DNA of 32,661 bases from an uncultured Ignavibacteriaceae bacterium (GTDB lineage: Bacteria; Bacteroidota; Ignavibacteria; UBA10030), in assembly GCA_964361365.1 (NCBI GenBank), contig CAYIBG010000002.1, forward strand, positions 1-32,661. The letters are read 5' to 3'. The number at the start of each line of letters is the position of its first letter. The stretch's first letter is position 1. Below the pieces are notes generated by a model. That model ran no database searches. It was not told where the DNA came from and worked only from the letters and a program-made list of their open reading frames with translations. Shown here piece after piece: positions 15,687 to 31,028 of this stretch. The position numbers and the translations under genes are program-made.

Positions 15687-18600
15687 ATGGATAAAATCAA
15701 CCGACGAAATTTTCTCGAGAAATCCGGCAAAGGATTTGTTGGTGGAGCTCTTTTGGGGAGTATGTTCGACCTCCACTTGCTTCAGTTTACTCAAGAAGTG
15801 GACAACCCCCTCGCCTTTTACCCAAATCGAGATTGGGAGAAAGTCTATCGCGACCAGTATCACTATGATCGATCATTCACCTACATCTGCGCTCCGAATG
15901 ATACTCATAATTGCCGGCTGCGAGCATTTGTCCGCAACGGCATCGTCGTGCGGATTGAACAGAATTATGATGCCACGGCCGTTTCAGACATTTACGGAAA
16001 CACAATCCCCCCTTCATGGAATCCACGCGGTTGTTCGAAAGGTTTTACCTACGTTCGCCGAATGTATGGGCCGTACCGTGTAAAATATCCGATGATCAGA
16101 AAGGGATGGAAAGAGTGGGCGGATGGCGGATTTCCAACAGATTCAAAAGGCGTTCCCGACCAGAAATACTTTTTGCGTGGCGAGGACAGTTGGATCAAGA
16201 TAAACTGGGATGACATCTCGACGTACGCAGCGAAAGGCTTGTTGCATGTGATGAAAAAGTATCAAGGAGAGCAAGGGGCCGAAAAGCTGAAAATACAGGG
16301 CTATCCTGAGGAGATGATTGAAGCGATGCACGGGAGCGGTGCACAAGTGCTTAAGATTCGTCCCGGCATGTCGATTCATGGCATTCTTCGCATTCAGGCG
16401 CTGAAGCGATTCGCGAACATGCTCGCATTGCACGACGAGGAAGAAGCAAAGAAGCACCATCGCGACCCGTACGGCGCCCGCTCATGGACGAATTACGATT
16501 GGCATGGTGACTTACCGCCCGGTCACCCGATGGTCACCGGCATTCAAACCCACGACGATGACCACAACAACTTCCGTCACGCCAGACTTTTCATTATGCA
16601 GGGCGTGAACTTTGTCGAAAACAAGATGTCGGACGCCCATTGGTGGATTGAAACCATGGAGCGCGGTGGAAAGATTGTGGTCATAGCCCCGGAGTACGGC
16701 CCTTCCGCGCAAAAAGCCGACTATTGGATTCCCGTTCGGCCGGGAACCGATCCGGCACTGCAGTTGGGCGTTACAAATGTTTTGTTTAAAGAAAAACTGT
16801 ACGACGCACCCTTCGTCAAACGATTCACCGATATGCCTCTCCTGGTTCGCATGGACACCCTGAAACTTCTTCGTGCGTCAGACATTTTCAAAGATTACAA
16901 GAATCAGGAGCTGAAGGGCTATAGTGTTCAAGTGCAAAAGATAGACCCCGAGGCCCGAGAGCGATGGGGCGACTTTGTTGTGTGGGACTCCAAGTCAAAG
17001 AAAACTGTTGCCGTGACAAGAGAGGATGTTGGAAAATATATTGACGAAATGAAGATTGATCCAGCTCTCGAGGGGACTTTTTCCGTGAAAGACATGAAGG
17101 GAAGACAAATCAAAGTTAAATCCGTCTTTCAACTCTATAAAGAGCTTTGCGCTGAATACGACCTGGATGCAACCCATGAGATCACTGGTTCCCCGAAAGA
17201 ACTTATCGTTCGTCTTGCGCGAGATCTTGGAAGCATCAGGCCAGCGGCGGTACACACCGGAGAAGGCGTGAACCACTACTTCCATTGCGATCTGACGACG
17301 CGAGGAACGTTCCTATGGATGGCCCTTACGGGCAATATCGGCAAACCGGGTTCGGGAGTTGGACACTGGGCAGGGAATTACAAGTTTTGCGTGTTCGATG
17401 GTCTTGCGAAATTTAATGGTGAAGATCCATTTAACATGAATCTTGACCCAAACGCAAACGGGAAGGATGTCAAGAGCAAGAAGTACTACAAGCCCGAGAA
17501 TCCGGCGTACTGGAATTACGAGGATCTTCCACTCATTGTGCAAACACAAGAAGGTCGCAAGGTCTTTACCGGGAAAACGCATATGCCCACACCGACGAAA
17601 GTGCAGTGGACTGCGAATGTGAATCTGCTGAACAACGCCAAGTGGGCATACAACATGGCAAAGAATGTGGACCCAAAGGTCGAGATGATCGTGGTCAATG
17701 AGATGGAATGGACTGGGAGCTGTGAGTTTGCTGATATCGTGTTACCCGTGGAGTGTTGGGCAGAACTCACGCTTCCCGATATGACTGCCTCATGCTCGAA
17801 TCCGTTTTTGCAGGCGTGGAAGGGGGGCGTGAAGCCAATTTTCGATAATCGCAACGACGCCTTGATCATGGCAGGAGTTGCTGCGAAGCTTGCCGAGTTG
17901 ACCGGCGATCAGCGCTACCGGGATTATTTCAAATTCATTTTAGAAGGAAAACCAGAGGTATACCTCCAGCGCGTCCTTGATGCCGGCACTACTACCGATG
18001 GCTACAAGATCGATGAACTACTCAAGAAAGATGCTGCGGTGTTGATGATGTTCCGAACCTATCCACGTATTCCAGGCTGGGAGCAAATCAATGAATCGAA
18101 ACCGTTCTATAACAAAACGGGGCGGATTGAATTTTACCGCGAAGAGGACGAGTTCATCGAATACGGCGAAAATCTCATTGTTCACCGCGAACCTGTCGAA
18201 GCGACGCCGTATCTTCCCAACGTCATCGTGGCATCTCATCCAGCGATCCGTCCACACAATTATGATCTTCCTCAGAACCATCCCGGCGCAGATGAGCGCT
18301 CCGTCAATAACGTGAAGATGCCCTGGAGGAAAGTGAAGCAGACACGCAGCTTCCTTTGGCAGCAGGGTTACCGATTCTGGTGCCTCACACCGAAATCACG
18401 GCACACAAATCACTCCTCCTGGGCTGTGACGGATTGGAATTTTATCTGGAACAACAACTTTGGCGACCCGTACCGGGCAGACAAGCGAATGCCCGGTGTG
18501 GGTGAGCATCAAGTCCAGATGAATCCCGATGATGCGAAAGAGCTTGGCATCAACGACGGCGATTATGTCTATGTCGATGCAAATCCTGCGGACCGACCAT

Positions 18601-19103
18601 ACAAAGGATGGAAGCCCAATGATCCCTTCTACAAGGTTTCTCGTTTGATGCTGCGCATGAAATACAATCCTGCATATCCGCGTGGAGTCACCATGATCAA
18701 ACATTCAGCCTTCATGGCGACTCCCAAATCGGTGAAGGCACATGAGACACGCGAGGATGGAAAGGCTGTTTCAGAAGATACCGGATATCAGGCCAGCTTC
18801 CGGTATGGTTCGCAACAAAGTATTACGCGCGGATGGCTTCAGCCAACGATGATGACGGATTCACTTGTGCGCAAGGATGTTATAGGACAGCACATTGGGG
18901 AAGGTTACGAAGAGGATGTCAACTCGCCGAACACTTGTCCCAAGGAAACCATGGTCCGCATCACGAAAGCGGAAGACGGAGGCATGGATGGGAAGGGATT
19001 ATGGGATCCCGTCAAAACACAGCTGACACCGGCTAACGAGAACGAAACGATGAAGAAGTATCTCGGGGGAGAATTCATCGAGAAAGGAACTTCCAATGGC
19101 TGA
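15687..19103 (+). CDS. nxrA: Tat-exported molybdopterin oxidoreductase alpha subunit, type II DMSO-reductase family, NxrA/NarG-like (periplasmic NXR-like clade)
   Basis: 1138 aa with the twin-arginine signal NRRNFLEKSG. N-terminal Fe-S (FS0) motif C68-x3-D72-x3-C76-x39-C116 (15888-16034). NarG-like core blocks (GDLPPGHP, SDAHWW, PEYGP). Confidence 0.85.
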   Translation: MDKINRRNFLEKSGKGFVGGALLGSMFDLHLLQFTQEVDNPLAFYPNRDWEKVYRDQYHYDRSFTYICAPNDTHNCRLRAFVRNGIVVRIEQNYDATAVSDIYGNTIPPSWNPRGCSKGFTYVRRMYGPYRVKYPMIRKGWKEWADGGFPTDSKGVPDQKYFLRGEDSWIKINWDDISTYAAKGLLHVMKKYQGEQGAEKLKIQGYPEEMIEAMHGSGAQVLKIRPGMSIHGILRIQALKRFANMLALHDEEEAKKHHRDPYGARSWTNYDWHGDLPPGHPMVTGIQTHDDDHNNFRHARLFIMQGVNFVENKMSDAHWWIETMERGGKIVVIAPEYGPSAQKADYWIPVRPGTDPALQLGVTNVLFKEKLYDAPFVKRFTDMPLLVRMDTLKLLRASDIFKDYKNQELKGYSVQVQKIDPEARERWGDFVVWDSKSKKTVAVTREDVGKYIDEMKIDPALEGTFSVKDMKGRQIKVKSVFQLYKELCAEYDLDATHEITGSPKELIVRLARDLGSIRPAAVHTGEGVNHYFHCDLTTRGTFLWMALTGNIGKPGSGVGHWAGNYKFCVFDGLAKFNGEDPFNMNLDPNANGKDVKSKKYYKPENPAYWNYEDLPLIVQTQEGRKVFTGKTHMPTPTKVQWTANVNLLNNAKWAYNMAKNVDPKVEMIVVNEMEWTGSCEFADIVLPVECWAELTLPDMTASCSNPFLQAWKGGVKPIFDNRNDALIMAGVAAKLAELTGDQRYRDYFKFILEGKPEVYLQRVLDAGTTTDGYKIDELLKKDAAVLMMFRTYPRIPGWEQINESKPFYNKTGRIEFYREEDEFIEYGENLIVHREPVEATPYLPNVIVASHPAIRPHNYDLPQNHPGADERSVNNVKMPWRKVKQTRSFLWQQGYRFWCLTPKSRHTNHSSWAVTDWNFIWNNNFGDPYRADKRMPGVGEHQVQMNPDDAKELGINDGDYVYVDANPADRPYKGWKPNDPFYKVSRLMLRMKYNPAYPRGVTMIKHSAFMATPKSVKAHETREDGKAVSEDTGYQASFRYGSQQSITRGWLQPTMMTDSLVRKDVIGQHIGEGYEEDVNSPNTCPKETMVRITKAEDGGMDGKGLWDPVKTQLTPANENETMKKYLGGEFIEKGTSNG

Positions 19104-19379: not shown

Positions 19380-20552
19380 ATGCCTAAAGTCTACAATTGG
19401 CAATTAGGTCGTGAAATGGAGTATCCCTACGAGGGAAAACGACCAAAGAGACAGTTTGCGGCCGTGTTCAATATTAACCGCTGCATTGGATGCCAAACTT
19501 GCACGATGGCGTGCAAGAGTACCTGGACCTATTCTAAGGGACAGGAAGCAATGTGGTGGAATAACGTTGAGACGAAACCTTACGGCGGATATCCGCAAAG
19601 TTGGGACGTGAAAACATTGGAGCTTCTCGGGCCACAACCCGGTTGGGATACCGTTAAGGCCGACTCTGAAAAGCCATACGGTGTTTATCGAGGTGAAACT
19701 CTCTTCGAGGCCGCAACAACGAGGGCCACCGGGAGCGGTGAACGGGCACTTGGTTATCTTCCCACGGAAAAGGAATGGCGCTCACCGAACTTCTACGAGG
19801 ACACTGCTTACTCGACGCTTGCATCCAAAGAGGGCCGCACCGCTGACGGCACAAAGCTCCCCGAACACAAAGCTTGGTTTTTTTATTTGCAGCGCATTTG
19901 CAACCATTGTTCGTATCCGGCGTGTCTGGCCGCTTGTCCACGCGGCGCAATTTATAAACGGCCTGAAGATGGAATCGTGCTTATCGACCAAAGCCAATGT
20001 CGGGGCTATCGGAAGTGCGTGGAGCAATGTCCATACAAGAAACCGATGTTTAACTCCGAGACACGGATTTCGGAGAAATGCATAGCCTGTTATCCGCGAG
20101 GAGAAGGTTCCGACCCGCTCACCGAGGGTGAGCCAATGGTCACGCGATGTGTAGCATCCTGCGTCGGGAAAATCCGCCTGCAGGGTTGGATCGACGATCC
20201 GGAGAGTCCCATACATTATCTTGTCCACAAAGCAAAGGTAGCGCTTCCACTTTACCCCCAGTTTGGTACAGAACCCAACATCTACTACATCCCTCCTCGA
20301 TGGGCTCCACGAGCGTACTTGAAACAGATGTTTGGTCCTGGCGTTGACCACGCTCTTACAGAATACGCAAATCCCACGCACGAACTCCTCGGAGTGCTGC
20401 AACTGTTTGGAGCAAGTCAAAACCTTGTTTATAGCTATCGAGTAGACGGAGACGAGGTTGTCGGGTTCGGAAAGCGAAGACAGGAAGTTGTGCGGGTTCC
20501 CATCGAAGATCCCGTGATCGTTCGCTCCGAAAAGCATTTGAATGTGACGTGA
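19380..20552 (+). CDS. nxrB: Molybdoenzyme beta subunit (four Fe-S clusters), NxrB/NarH-like
   Basis: 390 aa with an AAGGAGAA RBS. Cys motifs CIGCQTCTMAC, CNHCSYPACLAACP, CRGYRKCVEQCP and CIACYPR. No signal peptide, so probably exported by hitch-hiking on the Tat-signal-bearing alpha subunit. The N-terminus MPKVYNWQLGR resembles Nitrospira-type NxrB as I recall it. Confidence 0.9.
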   Translation: MPKVYNWQLGREMEYPYEGKRPKRQFAAVFNINRCIGCQTCTMACKSTWTYSKGQEAMWWNNVETKPYGGYPQSWDVKTLELLGPQPGWDTVKADSEKPYGVYRGETLFEAATTRATGSGERALGYLPTEKEWRSPNFYEDTAYSTLASKEGRTADGTKLPEHKAWFFYLQRICNHCSYPACLAACPRGAIYKRPEDGIVLIDQSQCRGYRKCVEQCPYKKPMFNSETRISEKCIACYPRGEGSDPLTEGEPMVTRCVASCVGKIRLQGWIDDPESPIHYLVHKAKVALPLYPQFGTEPNIYYIPPRWAPRAYLKQMFGPGVDHALTEYANPTHELLGVLQLFGASQNLVYSYRVDGDEVVGFGKRRQEVVRVPIEDPVIVRSEKHLNVT

Positions 20553-20599: not shown

Positions 20600-22324
20600 A
20601 TGAAATCCTTATTGATAGTTGTGATCCTTGGCCTCGGATTGTTCGCGATGGGTTTTCGACCCTGGCCAGCGTTTAACCAAGACACTTCTGCTTCGGCTGA
20701 AAATGGAAAAACTCTCTATCTCAAATATTGCACCACATGCCATGGTGTCGATGGAACCGGAGAGGGAACTGCCACTGTCTATCTTTTTCCCAAGCCCCGG
20801 GACTTCACAAAAGGCATTTTCAAGTTCCAGTCAACTCCGTCAGGTTCTCTCCCAACAGACGGAGATCTCGAGCGAACAATCCGCAACGGGATGCCTGGTT
20901 CAGCCATGCCGGCATGGGATGGGTTGTCCGCCGGGGAACGCAAAGATCTTATTTCCTACGTCAAAACTTTTTCAGAGCGATTCAGAACCAACAAACCTTC
21001 TGACCCTTTGGAAATTGAAAAGGAGCCTCAATCAACGCCTGAAATGCTCCGAAACGGCAAGGCAGTGTTCGCGTTGGCAGGCTGCTGGATGTGTCACGGA
21101 AAGAATGGCGCGGGTGATGGTCCGTCTTCCAAAAACATGACGGATGATCTGGGGCGGCCAACACCGCCTTATAATTTTACGAGGGCCGGCGCGTTCAAAG
21201 GCGGCGGAACACCTCAGGACATCTATCGCACGTTTAGCACCGGCATTGGCGGAACTCCGATGCCAGGGTATGGTGAAGATGCCCTCGCCGTTGGGAGGGA
21301 AAGTTTTGGTGATTTGACGAACCTGGAAGGGTATTATACCTCCAACGAAGTCCGAGAGTTTAAGGAGTTCATTTCTCAATGGCCAAAAGAAGAACACCTG
21401 AGCCGCATGAGTCTGGCCGAACGGAAACAACTGGCGGATGATCGTCGGTGGTCCCTTGTCTCCTATGTTCTCTCTCTGTCGAAGTCGGGTAAAACACAAA
21501 TATCGTATACAACCACCGATCATTTGTTAACCAGTGCGACGACAGATGATGTTTCGAAGTTTGGCGATCCTTTTTCCCAGCGCTGGAACGCTGTCAAAGG
21601 CGAAGAACTTTCTTTGATCTCATTGTGGCAAAGAGATACTCCAACAGACCGTGTGAATGTCCAAAGCGTGACAGACGGCAAATCTATCGCGTTTCGGCTT
21701 GAGTGGGAAGACAGTACTCAGGATGACCAAGCGTTGCATGATGCAACATTTGGAGACGCAGCAGCTATTCAATTTCCCCTCAATCCGTCAAGCCAGCCGT
21801 TCTTCGGCATGGGCGACACAAACTTTGCTGTCAATATCTGGCAGTGGAAAAGCTGGTGGGAGGCCGATTCAAAGAAGTACGCAGGTGTGAACAGCGCCTT
21901 TCCCCGTAATGCGACTGATTTCTATCTTTACGATGTTTCAGGCGGTTCTCGAATGGAATACCTTGTGAGCAAAGATTCCGCGAGAATGCTTTCGATACCT
22001 TGGAATGCCGGATGGAGTTCGGGGAATCTTCTCAGTGCGCAATCCAGAAGATCTTCTGTCGAAGACTTGAACGCCAAAGGATTTGGGACGCTTCGTTCTC
22101 AAGGGCCCGCTGGACAAAATGTTGGAGGTAATGGCGTGTGGAAAAATGGGAAGTGGGTGGCTGTTTTCACAAGGTCTCTCGCTTCGCAAGATTTGAACGA
22201 TGTTCCTTTAACATCAAGGAACACGATTCCCGTTGCGTTCGCGGTGTGGGATGGATTTCTCGGTGACCGTAATGGCCAAAAGATGGTGACCAATTGGTAC
22301 ACGCTTAACATTGGGCCAAAATGA
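20600..22324 (+). CDS. Gamma-like subunit: Sec signal + dihaem cytochrome c + EbdC/NxrC-type haem-b (EB_dh) domain fusion
   Basis: ATG 20600 follows an AAGGAGGG RBS and gives the signal peptide MKSLLIVVILGLGLFAMG. CxxCH motifs at 20729-20743 (CTTCH) and 21083-21097 (CWMCH), with MPA/MPG Met-ligand contexts. The C-terminal half has the EB_dh-like pattern (AFRLEWED, DAAAIQFP, FFGMGD, NIWQWKS). Confidence 0.8.
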   Translation: MKSLLIVVILGLGLFAMGFRPWPAFNQDTSASAENGKTLYLKYCTTCHGVDGTGEGTATVYLFPKPRDFTKGIFKFQSTPSGSLPTDGDLERTIRNGMPGSAMPAWDGLSAGERKDLISYVKTFSERFRTNKPSDPLEIEKEPQSTPEMLRNGKAVFALAGCWMCHGKNGAGDGPSSKNMTDDLGRPTPPYNFTRAGAFKGGGTPQDIYRTFSTGIGGTPMPGYGEDALAVGRESFGDLTNLEGYYTSNEVREFKEFISQWPKEEHLSRMSLAERKQLADDRRWSLVSYVLSLSKSGKTQISYTTTDHLLTSATTDDVSKFGDPFSQRWNAVKGEELSLISLWQRDTPTDRVNVQSVTDGKSIAFRLEWEDSTQDDQALHDATFGDAAAIQFPLNPSSQPFFGMGDTNFAVNIWQWKSWWEADSKKYAGVNSAFPRNATDFYLYDVSGGSRMEYLVSKDSARMLSIPWNAGWSSGNLLSAQSRRSSVEDLNAKGFGTLRSQGPAGQNVGGNGVWKNGKWVAVFTRSLASQDLNDVPLTSRNTIPVAFAVWDGFLGDRNGQKMVTNWYTLNIGPK

Positions 22325-22334
22325 GAGGACAACG

Positions 22335-23117
22335 ATGAATACGATATCAGCTGACACGAAAGCGTTGAACGCCGAAGTGCGGGCTCAGATATACAAGATT
22401 CTCGCGAAGTCATTTCTCTATCCGACGAAGGATTTCTTCGATTCTATCGGGACACAGGAATACACCCAGGCGTTGTTGTGTTATTGCTCGTTGAATTCTT
22501 CTTCTTCGGAACTCCAAGCCACGATTCAGGCTGTATGTGAGATGCTCAAAAGTGGGGAGCAGGGGCCGACTCCAGGAACTCTCGAATATGAGTACAATCG
22601 CCTTTTTGCCCATCTTGGCTCGGCGAAATGTCCTCCTTATGAAACCGAATACGGCTATGATAATGTCTTTCAGAAGACTCAGACGATGGCAGATATTGCG
22701 GGGTTTTACAAGGCATACGGTCTGGAAGTTTCAGATACCAATGCAGAACGAGTAGACTTTTTGGGCACGGAGTTGGAGTTCATGGCTTTTCTTTCGCTTC
22801 AGGAGGCGTACGCCAGAGAGCAGGGGGAACATGAGCACATTGAAATCTGTGTTGATACCCAGCGCAAGTTCATGAAAGATCATCTCGGCCGATGGACAGG
22901 GATCTTTACGAAGATTCTCGCGAGAACGACAGAAGAGAAATTTTATGAAAATGCAGGGAAGCAACTGGAAGAGTTCGTCGGAAACGAGCTGGGGCGTCTG
23001 AACGTGTTCCCGGAAGAAGTGACGGCGCCGAGTAAAGAACCACCCGCGAGCCAGGAACCGTTTGGCTGTGAAGGATGCGTGTCTCCCACTTCCGCGGGAT
23101 CCACGGAAAAGTCATGA
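22335..23117 (+). CDS. TorD/NarJ/DmsD-family redox-enzyme maturation chaperone
   Basis: ATG 22335 with a GAGAGGA RBS. TorD-family pattern (YNRLF...PPYETEY, ELEFMAFL). The position after the structural genes mirrors narJ and nxrD. Confidence 0.8.
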   Translation: MNTISADTKALNAEVRAQIYKILAKSFLYPTKDFFDSIGTQEYTQALLCYCSLNSSSSELQATIQAVCEMLKSGEQGPTPGTLEYEYNRLFAHLGSAKCPPYETEYGYDNVFQKTQTMADIAGFYKAYGLEVSDTNAERVDFLGTELEFMAFLSLQEAYAREQGEHEHIEICVDTQRKFMKDHLGRWTGIFTKILARTTEEKFYENAGKQLEEFVGNELGRLNVFPEEVTAPSKEPPASQEPFGCEGCVSPTSAGSTEKS

Positions 23118-27872: not shown

Positions 27873-27897
27873 TGTACCTTTGAGAGGACGAGAATCA

Positions 27898-29121
27898 ATG
27901 GACCACAAGACCATCAAAGAAAAACTGAGTTTTGTAAAACTCGACAGGTTGATCGTGAATATCGTTGGCATCGCACTGTTCCTGGTCGTTGCGTTCAGCG
28001 TGTACGATTACTTTCAACCGGAGTGGCTGAGTTATCAGGCTGAGTTCAGAGACCTTGTGGAAGGGAAGTTCGGTCCTGAGCGAGCCGAGGCAGTTCCGTC
28101 CGGATTCCAGCAGATTTACCTGAAAACGTTGAACCGCACGGACCGATGCATCACATGTCACCAAGGGTTTGAGTGGACAGGGCTTGAAAACGCGCCTGAG
28201 CCTTTTCGAACCCACCCCAAGGAAATCCTGAAGACGCATCCGATTTCCCGGTACGGTTGTACAACATGTCACGGCGGCCAGGGTTATGCGACAGATATGG
28301 AACCTGCTCACGGATTGATCGAACACTGGGAAGAGCCCGTGCTGGGGAAGGAACTGGGGAATTTCTATGTCATGAGCGATAAGAAGGCGCTGATGCAAAT
28401 GCAGTGTAACGCCTGTCATCGTTTCGACAAGGAAACCAAAGGGGCGGGGTACATGAACCGAGCGAAGCAGCTCGTGGCCGAAAAGGGATGCCGCGCTTGC
28501 CACGTCATCAATGGCCGGGGAGGCACCGTGGCCCCCGACCTGACGCAGGAAGGCGACAAATCAGCCGCACAATTCAATTACGAGCGCATCAAAGGTCTGC
28601 ATTCCGAGTTTACGTGGCATGTTTCGCACTTTAAGAACCCGAAAGAACTTGTTCCCGAAACAGTCATGCCGAACTTCAACTTTGGCAGTGCCGATGCTCA
28701 AGCGTTGGCTATGCTGGTCATGAGCTGGAAGAGAAACGAGATCCCGGTGAGCTACATACCGAACAATAATTTCAAAGACACACCGACAAAAGAAGAGCTG
28801 GAAAAGGAAGAGAAGATGCTGAAAGGACCGGGGGCATTCTTCGTGAAGAAGAACTGTTTCGTGTGTCACTCTGTCTCCACGCTCGGCATCGATGCAGCCG
28901 CTCAAATAGGCCCTGACCTCGCGATGGCCGTCGAGGATGTTCAGTCCCGCTTTGGAAGAACGCTTGATGATTTTCTTGCAAAGCCGACGGGAACGATGGA
29001 GGTGGTGTTGTCTACCATGATCACGCTGACGGAAGAAGAGCGAAAGGAAGCGATCGAGAAGCTCCGGTTCGCCTACGAGCTGAAGCAAAAAGAAAAGAAA
29101 AAAATTGTTGTAAAGAAGTAA
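27898..29121 (+). CDS. Membrane-anchored pentahaem cytochrome c
   Basis: ATG 27898 with a GAGAGGA RBS. N-terminal TM helix. Five CxxCH motifs (CITCH, CTTCH, CNACH, CRACH, CFVCH). Confidence 0.8.
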   Translation: MDHKTIKEKLSFVKLDRLIVNIVGIALFLVVAFSVYDYFQPEWLSYQAEFRDLVEGKFGPERAEAVPSGFQQIYLKTLNRTDRCITCHQGFEWTGLENAPEPFRTHPKEILKTHPISRYGCTTCHGGQGYATDMEPAHGLIEHWEEPVLGKELGNFYVMSDKKALMQMQCNACHRFDKETKGAGYMNRAKQLVAEKGCRACHVINGRGGTVAPDLTQEGDKSAAQFNYERIKGLHSEFTWHVSHFKNPKELVPETVMPNFNFGSADAQALAMLVMSWKRNEIPVSYIPNNNFKDTPTKEELEKEEKMLKGPGAFFVKKNCFVCHSVSTLGIDAAAQIGPDLAMAVEDVQSRFGRTLDDFLAKPTGTMEVVLSTMITLTEEERKEAIEKLRFAYELKQKEKKKIVVKK

Positions 29122-29168: not shown

Positions 29169-31028
29169 ATGAAAACAAAACTCTTTGCAATCATTGCGCT
29201 CGTCATAACGTTGGTTTTATTGGCTGGCTGCGGTGGCGAACAACGAGGGAGAACGGCCCGTTCTGATGTGCAGGAAGCGGCGCTCAAAAGTTACGTCGCA
29301 CCGGGCGACCTGGACGAGTATTATATCTTCAAATCGGGCGGCCACTCGGGGCAAGTGTACGTCTACGGTATCCCCTCGATGCGTCATATCTCAACCATCC
29401 CCGTGTTCAGTCCCTATGCCGCAACGGGATACGGATTCGATAAAGAATCGAAGGAAATGCTCGGCGGGTTCACGTGGGGCGATGCGCACCATCCGTCACT
29501 CAGCGAAACAGACGGGGACTACGACGGGCGCTGGTTGTTCATTTCGGATAACGCGAACAATCGCATGGCTCGGGTCGACTTGCGCGATTTCAAGACCAAG
29601 CAGATCTTTGGACCGATCCCCAACGTCTCAGGGAATCATTGCTCCTCGTTCAGCACCGAGAACACGGAATACATCCTCGCCGGTTCGAGGTTTTCGATTC
29701 CTCTGCCGAAGGGTTCTTATGAGAAGATCGAGGATTATGCAACGAAGTACAAAGGGGTTGTCGCAGGGATCGAAGTCAACCCGAAGAGCGGCAACATGAC
29801 TCTTGGCTGGCAAGTACTGATGCCGCCATTTAACTATGATTTGGGCGATGCAGGAAAGGGTCCGAGTAAGGAATGGGGCTTCTGGACGTGCTACAACAGC
29901 GAGCGAGCGATCGGGAAACTTGAAGTTACTTCCACGCAGAAAGACCGTGACTATGTTGTTGCGGTAAACTGGAAATCCGCGGAAAAGGCAATCAAAGACG
30001 GCAAGTTCAGAATGATCGGCGGTGTCAAGGTGATTGACCCGAAACAAACCGAAGGAGTGGTATATCTGATGCCGGCTGCGAAGTCGCCGCACGGAGTGGA
30101 CATAAGCCCGGACGGCAAGTATATCATTGCCAGCGGAAAGTTGCAGAGCATTACCACGGTCTTCAATTTCGAAAAAATGCTGACGGCCATTCAAAAGAAG
30201 GATTTCACCGGTAACGAAGATGGAATTCCCGTCCTGAATTACGACGCCGTCAAAGACGCTGAAGTCAATGTGGGTCTCGGTCCATTGCATACACAGTTCG
30301 ACGATAAGGGTTTCGCCTACACGTCTCTGTTCGTTGAAAGTGCGGTTGCGAAGTGGAAGCTGGGAACATGGGAAGTCGTGGATAAAATCCCGGTATCGTA
30401 CAACATCGGCCACCTGACAGCGGCAGAAGGCGACACGAAGAATCCAGACGGCAAGTACCTGGTCGCCCTCAACAAGCTTTCCCATGGGCGGCATTTGAGC
30501 GTGGGTCCTTCGCAGCCAGAGTCCTCGCAGCTCATCGATATCAGCGGGGAAAAAATGGGATTACTCATGGATGCGTTCACAGAGCCCGAGCCTCATTACG
30601 CTCAGATCGTCAAAGCGGACAAGATAAAGCCGATCGAAGTATATCCGAAAGAGGAAAACAAACACCCGAAGGCGATCTGGGATATCAAGGACTCGAAGGT
30701 TGTCCGCAACGGCAGGAACGTTGAGGTGTACATGATTGCGGTTCGCTCAAGCTTCACGCCGACCAGTGTCGAAGTGAACAAAGGGGACAAGGTCACGATT
30801 TATATGACGAACATCGAGCAGACAACGGATGAACTGCACGGGTTAGGGATCAACGAGTATAACATCAACGTTGTCGTGGACCCGGGCGAGACGAAGACCA
30901 TCGAGTTCGTGGCGGATAAGCCGGGAGTGTTCCCGTTTTACTGCACGAATTTTTGCTCAGCGCTGCACCAGGAGATGCAAGGATATCTTCTCGTGAAGGG
31001 CGGAGGCAGTTCGGTTGTCTTAAACTAG
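29169..31028 (+). CDS. nosZ: Nitrous-oxide reductase, clade II (Sec-type, predicted lipoprotein)
   Basis: 619 aa with an AAAGGAGG RBS. No twin-arginine motif. Lipobox LLAGC (Cys21, 29229-29231). CuZ-region motif GDAHHP. C-terminal CuA motif CTNFCSALHQEM. Confidence 0.92.
   Translation: MKTKLFAIIALVITLVLLAGCGGEQRGRTARSDVQEAALKSYVAPGDLDEYYIFKSGGHSGQVYVYGIPSMRHISTIPVFSPYAATGYGFDKESKEMLGGFTWGDAHHPSLSETDGDYDGRWLFISDNANNRMARVDLRDFKTKQIFGPIPNVSGNHCSSFSTENTEYILAGSRFSIPLPKGSYEKIEDYATKYKGVVAGIEVNPKSGNMTLGWQVLMPPFNYDLGDAGKGPSKEWGFWTCYNSERAIGKLEVTSTQKDRDYVVAVNWKSAEKAIKDGKFRMIGGVKVIDPKQTEGVVYLMPAAKSPHGVDISPDGKYIIASGKLQSITTVFNFEKMLTAIQKKDFTGNEDGIPVLNYDAVKDAEVNVGLGPLHTQFDDKGFAYTSLFVESAVAKWKLGTWEVVDKIPVSYNIGHLTAAEGDTKNPDGKYLVALNKLSHGRHLSVGPSQPESSQLIDISGEKMGLLMDAFTEPEPHYAQIVKADKIKPIEVYPKEENKHPKAIWDIKDSKVVRNGRNVEVYMIAVRSSFTPTSVEVNKGDKVTIYMTNIEQTTDELHGLGINEYNINVVVDPGETKTIEFVADKPGVFPFYCTNFCSALHQEMQGYLLVKGGGSSVVLN

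Follow-up and report, generated by a model that had tools for sequence, protein, structure and literature searches.

The locus described here raises the question of how a periplasmic molybdenum enzyme resembling nitrite oxidoreductase (NXR) exchanges electrons with a respiratory chain. It lies on contig CAYIBG010000002.1 of an uncultured Ignavibacteriaceae bacterium (assembly GCA_964361365.1), of which positions 1 to 32,661 were analysed (the window), and the gene found in the gamma subunit position, at 20600-22324, encodes a dihaem cytochrome c fused to a haem-b domain. Periplasmic NXR-like clusters are frequent in heterotrophs of wastewater, sediments and groundwater, and both their respiratory link and whether they make or consume nitrate are debated (PMC9306079; bioRxiv 10.1101/2020.05.19.103440). 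We consider it quite likely that the enzyme has no gamma subunit but the fused protein, which would connect it to the cytochrome c pool by a wire of three haems (b, c and c), and that the enzyme most likely reduces nitrate. The gene and its parts are as follows:

20600-22324, forward strand: fused gamma subunit gene, 574 amino acids (aa), with signal, dihaem cytochrome c, linker helix and EB_dh haem-b domain
20600-20656, forward strand: N-terminal hydrophobic segment, residues 1-19, MKSLLIVVILGLGLFAMGF, from sequence
20687-20974, forward strand: cytochrome c module 1, residues ~30-125; Pfam Cytochrom_C on residues 33-123; aligns to Kustc0457 (6h5l_B)
21035-21274, forward strand: cytochrome c module 2, residues ~146-225; second Cytochrom_C stretch; aligns to 6h5l_B
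21275-21424, forward strand: helical insertion of ~50 aa, residues 226-275; clade-specific; predicted local distance difference test (pLDDT) score ~85-94
21413-21478, forward strand: linker helix, residues 272-293; Trp284 and Ser292 invariant; seen in the AlphaFold2 (AF2) model
21512-22312, forward strand: EB_dh beta-sandwich haem-b domain, residues ~305-571; Pfam EB_dh; Met404 (nt 21809-21811) and Lys561 (nt 22280-22282)

The reading frame is open from the ATG at 20600 to the stop codon at 22322-22324 without an internal stop, has an AGGAGG ribosome-binding site 7-8 nucleotides (nt) before the ATG, starts 47 nt after the stop codon of the beta subunit gene, and is followed with almost no gap by the delta gene. 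A first-pass annotation, made from the letters of the window, had described a 574-aa protein with CTTCH and CWMCH motifs and the segments GMPGSAMPAW and GGTPMPGYG, and all of these are found exactly where it placed them: module 1 has C44-T-T-C47-H48 at nt 20729-20743 and the distal Met103 (nt 20906-20908) within GMPGSAMPAW, and module 2 has C162-W-M-C165-H166 at nt 21083-21097 and the distal Met221 (nt 21260-21262) within GGTPMPGYG. In searches with Pfam hidden Markov models (HMMs), the two Cytochrom_C stretches scored 75.4 bits (E 9.1e-21, cut-off 21.3) and EB_dh (PF09459) scored 96.2 bits on residues 344-561 (E 4.1e-27, cut-off 33.3); judged by these profiles, both scores are far beyond chance. 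The EbdC/NxrC-like character which the annotation had assigned to the C-terminal half, and which it would have dropped had EB_dh homology been lacking, is thus clearly recognised by the HMM. Residues 1-19 are predicted to be a Sec signal peptide, or else a signal anchor that stays uncleaved. There is no C-terminal anchor on the window protein. A homologue with 51% identity, encoded in the same beta-gamma-delta slot elsewhere (P0043, L096 2348-4186), has an extra C-terminal transmembrane helix and is a membrane-anchored variant of the fused gamma subunit.

Conservation was assessed in an alignment of 29 homologues with 34-75% identity, the named rows of which include Ignavibacteria/Bacteroidota, NC10/Methylomirabilales, Brocadiales and Lindowbacteria, as well as P0118 from a Nitrospinaceae genome. 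The residues C44, C47, H48, M103, C162, C165, H166, M221, M404 and K561 are invariant in all 29 rows, as are Trp284 and Ser292 of the connecting helix. The ~50-aa insertion between Met221 and the linker helix is confined to the 10 rows nearest to the window protein (P0001-P0043) and is absent from the 19 more distant ones. Counted along structure-sequence alignments, Met108/Lys201 of ethylbenzene dehydrogenase subunit EbdC and Met155/Lys305 of the C subunit of Kuenenia stuttgartiensis NXR (KsNXR-C) align on Met404 (FFGMGD) and Lys561 (NGQKMV) of the window protein, and both pairs bind haem b in the crystal structures, those of KsNXR-C being named as its ligands by Chicano et al. (PMC8387239). 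The conservation of a Met/Lys pair, which the first-pass annotation had wanted checked, therefore holds throughout, and the ligand pattern is the one expected for two His/Met haems c and one Met/Lys haem b, all three of which we would expect to be occupied.

Comparison with known structures gave the same division of the protein. Residues 33-226 (194 residues) match Kustc0457 (6h5l_B) with E 1.8e-55, residues 352-571 match KsNXR-C (7b04_C) with E 2.5e-31, and two stretches match EbdC (2ivf_C) with E 8.1e-11. An AF2 model built on the 29-row alignment has a mean pLDDT of 81.5 and a predicted template modelling score (pTM) of 0.79; it starts with a helix at residues 2-16 followed by a low-confidence segment (17-29), and the helical linker between the two halves is modelled confidently. 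The top Foldseek matches of this model were Kustc0457 (TM-score on target 0.92, root-mean-square deviation 1.7 Å), EbdC (TM-score on target 0.81) and KsNXR-C (0.68), the latter two both with probability 1.00. CBM9 modules are also among the Foldseek matches (E 1e-4 to 1e-6), and a haem-free, CBM9-like sandwich was considered for the EB_dh domain and rejected because Met404 and Lys561 are invariant. The arrangement of the three haems as a 'wire' is proposed on the basis of the domain homology and of a model with a pTM of 0.79.

The gene stands in an operon with the order alpha, 86-aa open reading frame (ORF), beta, fused gamma and TorD-like delta, preceded by an Rrf2 regulator gene and followed by genes for an FmdE-like protein, a GltD-like flavoprotein, a Rieske protein, cytochrome b, a multihaem cytochrome c and NosZ; alpha, beta, gamma and delta are all on one strand. 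The neighbouring features are:

15687-19103, forward strand: NxrA-like molybdopterin alpha subunit, 1138 aa; full-length match to Kuenenia NXR-A (7b04_B), 1421 bits
19096-19356, forward strand: 86-aa ORF between alpha and beta; homologues with 32-60% identity in the same slot at at least 20 loci in several phyla
19380-20552, forward strand: NxrB-like beta subunit with four Fe-S clusters, 390 aa; TIGR03478 DMSO_red_II_bet E 2.2e-85; Fer4_11
22311-23117, forward strand: TorD/NarJ-type chaperone (delta); Nitrate_red_del E 1.7e-24; TIGR03482
25892-29121, forward strand: Rieske protein, cytochrome b and multihaem cytochrome c; Pfam Rieske, Cytochrome_B and Cytochrom_C
29169-31028, forward strand: NosZ, 619 aa; nos_propeller and Cupredoxin_1; same co-oriented island

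The alpha subunit carries a twin-arginine signal (RRNFL), its molybdenum ligand Asp275 (WHGD, nt 16509-16511) aligns to Asp275 of KsNXR-A, and its Cys68, Asn71, Asp72 and Cys76 correspond to Cys67, Asn70, Asp71 and Cys75 of KsNXR-A, so that the substrate Asn and the 3Cys/1Asp site of the Fe-S cluster FS0, which like the molybdenum ligand were described for KsNXR-A (PMC8387239), are kept. By these sequence features the operon is a periplasmic NXR-like one of the Kuenenia/Nitrospira type, and the claim that a dihaem cytochrome c fused to a haem-b domain occupies the gamma position of a type II DMSO (dimethyl sulfoxide) reductase operon stands. The 86-aa ORF, with same-slot homologues at so many loci, is a conserved gene of NXR-like operons and not noise. 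As called, the delta ORF starts with a TTG at 22311 and overlaps the gamma stop codon by 14 nt, while an in-frame ATG at 22335 lies 10 nt past that stop codon and is probably the true start. The Rieske protein, cytochrome b and multihaem cytochrome c (the last at 27880-29121) are candidate electron donors or acceptors of the dihaem module, as their place in the gene neighbourhood suggests.

Taken together with the domain make-up and the ligands, this operon position suggests how electrons may travel. We infer that the fused protein assembles with the alpha and beta subunits, in which case haem b would take electrons from, or give them to, the last Fe-S cluster of beta, and the two c haems would carry the chain on to the protein surface, giving a full chain of molybdenum, FS0-FS4, haem b, haem c, haem c and external cytochrome c. 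With its c haems reaching the surface, the enzyme could exchange electrons directly with periplasmic c-type cytochromes, without a membrane quinol-oxidising subunit or a separate soluble shuttle. In the nitrate-reducing direction the flow would be from quinol via the Rieske/cytochrome b/multihaem cytochrome c complex to the dihaem module, haem b, the Fe-S chain and molybdenum. A three-haem 'NxrC' of this kind gives a concrete and testable route via the cytochrome c pool, and it implies that such NXR-like enzymes should not be modelled on the quinol-linked Nar.

The physiological direction in this heterotrophic, Ignavibacteria-like host is probably nitrate reduction rather than nitrite oxidation. 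We favour it because KsNXR, although bidirectional, is in vitro ~25 times faster as a nitrate reductase than as a nitrite oxidase (PMC8387239), because no NarG or NapA was found above curated cut-offs in five near-complete relatives (96-100%), which leaves the NXR-like enzyme as their only candidate nitrate reductase, because Rrf2-type regulators stand upstream of the operon here and at a second locus (L002), and because the Rieske protein, cytochrome b and multihaem cytochrome c encoded just downstream could pass quinol electrons to periplasmic cytochromes. To this we add a bioenergetic argument of our own: a purely periplasmic path from nitrite to NosZ would build no proton gradient, as protons would be released and consumed on the same side, and would therefore conserve no energy. 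Electron transfer to NosZ with no quinone step, as proposed in the first-pass annotation, is not supported; in the likelier, nitrate-reducing direction quinol would still be the electron source, by way of the adjacent Rieske protein and cytochrome b. NrfA is encoded by two of the five near-complete relatives, and a search of the own genome for nitrogen-cycle genes gave weak NrfA-like and cytochrome d1-like matches.

The in vitro bias of KsNXR, the lack of another candidate nitrate reductase in the relatives, NrfA in two of them, the Rrf2-type regulator and the bioenergetic argument also speak against the strongest competitor, a physiological nitrite oxidase of the same architecture from which electrons exit via haem b and the c haems to cytochrome c oxidase or NosZ. 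This possibility, which we regard as unlikely, has in its favour that alpha falls in the clade formed by the NXRs of nitrite oxidisers and anammox bacteria, that high potentials are typical of a Met/Lys haem b and of His/Met haems c and would fit the +420 mV couple (PMC8387239), and that a haem-copper oxidase is encoded in the genome and NosZ in the same island. Several points also weigh against the preferred reading, a nitrate-reducing enzyme with the fused protein as its gamma subunit. The haem-copper oxidase leaves room for aerobic nitrite oxidation, high-potential haems would suit either direction, and the direction of NXR-like enzymes in heterotrophs has been left open (PMC9306079). The NCBIfam model TIGR03477 of the type II gamma subfamily stays below its cut-off (E 8.3e-36, 123.3 bits, cut-off 169.85), and the own genome is just 75% complete. 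With 574 aa and two CxxCH modules ahead of EB_dh the protein falls outside the single-haem form of ~200-330 aa that is usual for type II gamma subunits.

The fused gene is the sole EB_dh gene of this genome, and the same is true of the five near-complete relatives (96-100% complete), all of which have an orthologous operon; an unsampled canonical NxrC is therefore unlikely. The architecture itself is widespread. A word-indexed protein search returned 750 relatives, and among the best 120 of these (32-96% identity) all but five combine Cytochrom_C and EB_dh, the exceptions (P0041, P0042 and P0044-P0046) being four truncated proteins and one longer, mis-joined call. When one genome per GTDB species was scanned, at least 462 encoding places came to light. 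In the own order a full-length orthologue with 63-68% identity was found in 8 of 151 sampled genomes, the own genome counted, with a patchy distribution over four families.

Operon linkage was scored in the best 80 GTDB loci. In 47 of them the fused gene adjoins NxrA-, NxrB- or chaperone-like genes, mostly in the order gamma, alpha, small ORF, beta, delta, and they carry the labels Planctomycetota, Verrucomicrobiota, Acidobacteriota, Omnitrophota, Binatota, Methylomirabilota, Rokubacteria and a Syntrophobacteraceae bin. No other EB_dh gene lies within ~8 kb in 46 of these 47 loci (the exception is L065). In ~9-10 phyla the operon has no gamma subunit other than the fused protein. The remaining 33 loci, a few of them on contigs too short to exclude linkage, have no nxrAB linkage; they comprise 26 from Nitrospinota, five from Poribacteria, and a further two which cluster with Nitrospinota although their labels are Nitrospirota (L046) and Fidelibacterota (L045). 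In a FastTree phylogeny of 88 sequences the window protein falls in a seven-row clade with 100% support, and the operon-linked state is paraphyletic, with the orphan Nitrospinota and Poribacteria clades nested inside; the tree is rooted at the midpoint only, and we therefore claim no order of events.

The surroundings of two further loci were noted. A Brocadiales-like locus from another search (L085, 10001-21000) encodes both a fused gamma subunit of 506 aa and a canonical EB_dh protein of 335 aa, the two genes surrounding beta, delta and alpha with a radical S-adenosylmethionine (radical-SAM) gene between. On a Methylomirabilales contig (L004, 2715-10206) two CCP/MauG di-haem peroxidase genes come after the fused gamma gene, together with an arsenite-oxidase-like Rieske/molybdopterin pair.

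The unlinked loci bear on a further possibility, namely that the window protein carries electrons freely through the periplasm, in the manner of the orphan alternative NxrC (alt_NxrC) of Nitrospina, instead of belonging to the alpha-beta complex as a stoichiometric subunit. Homologues do occur away from nxrAB in the Nitrospinota and Poribacteria loci, L046 and L045, and Lücker et al. (2013) considered alt_NxrC proteins as possible soluble electron carriers (PMC3578206), yet in the window the gene lies between beta and delta, neither the own genome nor the five relatives have another EB_dh gene, an alpha-beta complex of this family without a haem subunit would have no electron outlet, and operon linkage is the widespread, paraphyletic state, all of which makes a free carrier very improbable. 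An assembly, frameshift or gene-calling artefact that joined a cytochrome c gene to an nxrC gene, a doubt raised in the first-pass annotation itself, is ruled out for practical purposes by the continuous frame with its own ribosome-binding site, by the 29-row alignment and the confidently modelled linker helix with its invariant residues, and by full-length collinear homologues with 28-96% identity in hundreds of independent assemblies and at the GTDB places counted above, and the fusion is accordingly real.

How the preferred role, that of sole gamma subunit with a b-c-c wire, compares with what is known is best seen from four systems. The first is alt_NxrC, and the fused gamma subunit is a member of these known haem c/haem b NxrC-type proteins. 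Under the name 'alternative NxrC', Lücker et al. (2013) described proteins of Nitrospina gracilis with one to three cytochrome c sites and a DMSO-reductase-like haem-b domain, some of them predicted to be periplasmic, and proposed that the c haems relay nitrite-derived electrons (PMC3578206), and Mundinger et al. (2019) listed alt_nxrC_2, a dihaem protein of 66.8 kDa, for Nitrospira moscoviensis (PMC6606698). As in the window protein, c-haem sites and a haem-b domain are combined in one Sec-exported protein, and homologues from Nitrospinaceae (e.g. P0118) are collinear with it and keep all ten ligands; the Nitrospinaceae loci in the GTDB scan are of the alt_NxrC kind, and the architecture is therefore not new. 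The rarity implied by the first-pass annotation thus does not hold, as the architecture was already in the literature and is common in public genomes. The alt_NxrC genes of nitrite oxidisers are, however, extra copies beside a canonical NxrC and are encoded away from nxrAB, some of them near a bd-like oxidase and with transmembrane helices, whereas the window protein is the only gamma subunit, is encoded between nxrB and the chaperone gene, and has the clade-specific 50-aa insertion. In the open-access papers searched we found, besides the alt_NxrC descriptions for nitrite oxidisers, no statement that the operon-encoded NxrC of non-nitrifier NXR-like clusters has c haems, and Poghosyan et al. 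noted the co-localised nxrC of such clusters only for Sec signals and the absence of transmembrane helices. Two points have been less appreciated: widespread NXR-like operons have the fused protein as their sole gamma subunit, and the dihaem half of this protein is a close relative of Kustc0457.

KsNXR-C (kustd1704; 7b04 chain C) has the EB_dh fold in common with the window protein (37% identity over 227 residues), and its partner alpha subunit is highly similar to the window alpha, but it has one haem b and no cytochrome c module, and its acceptor is a separate partner (PMC8387239). EbdC (2ivf chain C) is, like the gamma domain, a soluble periplasmic beta-sandwich with a Met/Lys haem b encoded in an alpha-beta-gamma-delta operon; it differs in being of the single-haem type of 200-300 aa that relies on separate soluble cytochromes c, and its similarity is low (17% identity in the Foldseek alignment). 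SerC, ClrC and DdhC are other type II DMSO reductase gamma subunits of the EbdC kind.

The fourth system, Kustc0457, is the dihaem subunit that was co-purified and crystallised with the nitrite-reducing octahaem HAO Kustc0458 of K. stuttgartiensis (PMC8042395). Like the N-terminal half of the window protein it has two class-I cytochrome c domains of the same fold, each with a CxxCH motif and a distal Met, and the Met-bearing segments are alike (GMPGSAMPAW vs GVPNSTMIPW, and GGTPMP vs NGTPMP); the linker helix, too, has its counterpart in the helix that closes Kustc0457 (residues 276-296 vs 201-221 of the chain). Unlike the fused gamma subunit, Kustc0457 is a free-standing chain of 226 residues and sits on an octahaem HAO, not on a molybdenum enzyme. 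No HAO gene was found within the window, the rest of the genome not having been searched for it. The dihaem module has also been reused elsewhere: in the same order G051:C17, G114:C1 and ~40 other genomes (L092, L095), many of them relatives without an NXR-like operon, encode multihaem cytochromes c of 435-500 aa, the N-terminal part of which is 38-47% identical to the dihaem module, and in each of the two such loci inspected a gene for a 200-aa cytochrome c comes next.

Kustc0457 is 37% identical to the window protein in an alignment that spans the insertion, and has its nearest counterpart, with 54% identity, in the N-terminal half of two Brocadiales-type fused gamma subunits (P0064, also at L085, and P0062). 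The C-terminal halves of the fused proteins share 37-42% identity with KsNXR-C. Two Kuenenia proteins, homologous to the N- and C-terminal halves respectively, thus together correspond to the halves of the fusion, and this suggests that a Kustc0457-type module may dock on an NxrC-type domain. A more far-reaching, 'Rosetta stone' reading can be offered tentatively and is, taken as a whole, rather less probable than not: that the missing acceptor to which NXR passes its electrons in anammox bacteria is Kustc0457, docked on NXR-C, and that the fused-gamma operons of the ~9-10 phyla form a distinct respiratory class of soluble periplasmic nitrate/nitrite oxidoreductases, which would work on the cytochrome c pool and depend on a bc complex, without a NarI- or NapC-type quinol dehydrogenase. 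According to Chicano et al. (2021, PMC8387239), who left its identity open, electrons must pass from the NXR-C haem to a partner on their way toward nitrite reductase, and the homology of the c-haem half of the fused gamma subunit to Kustc0457 suggests a specific candidate for this partner.

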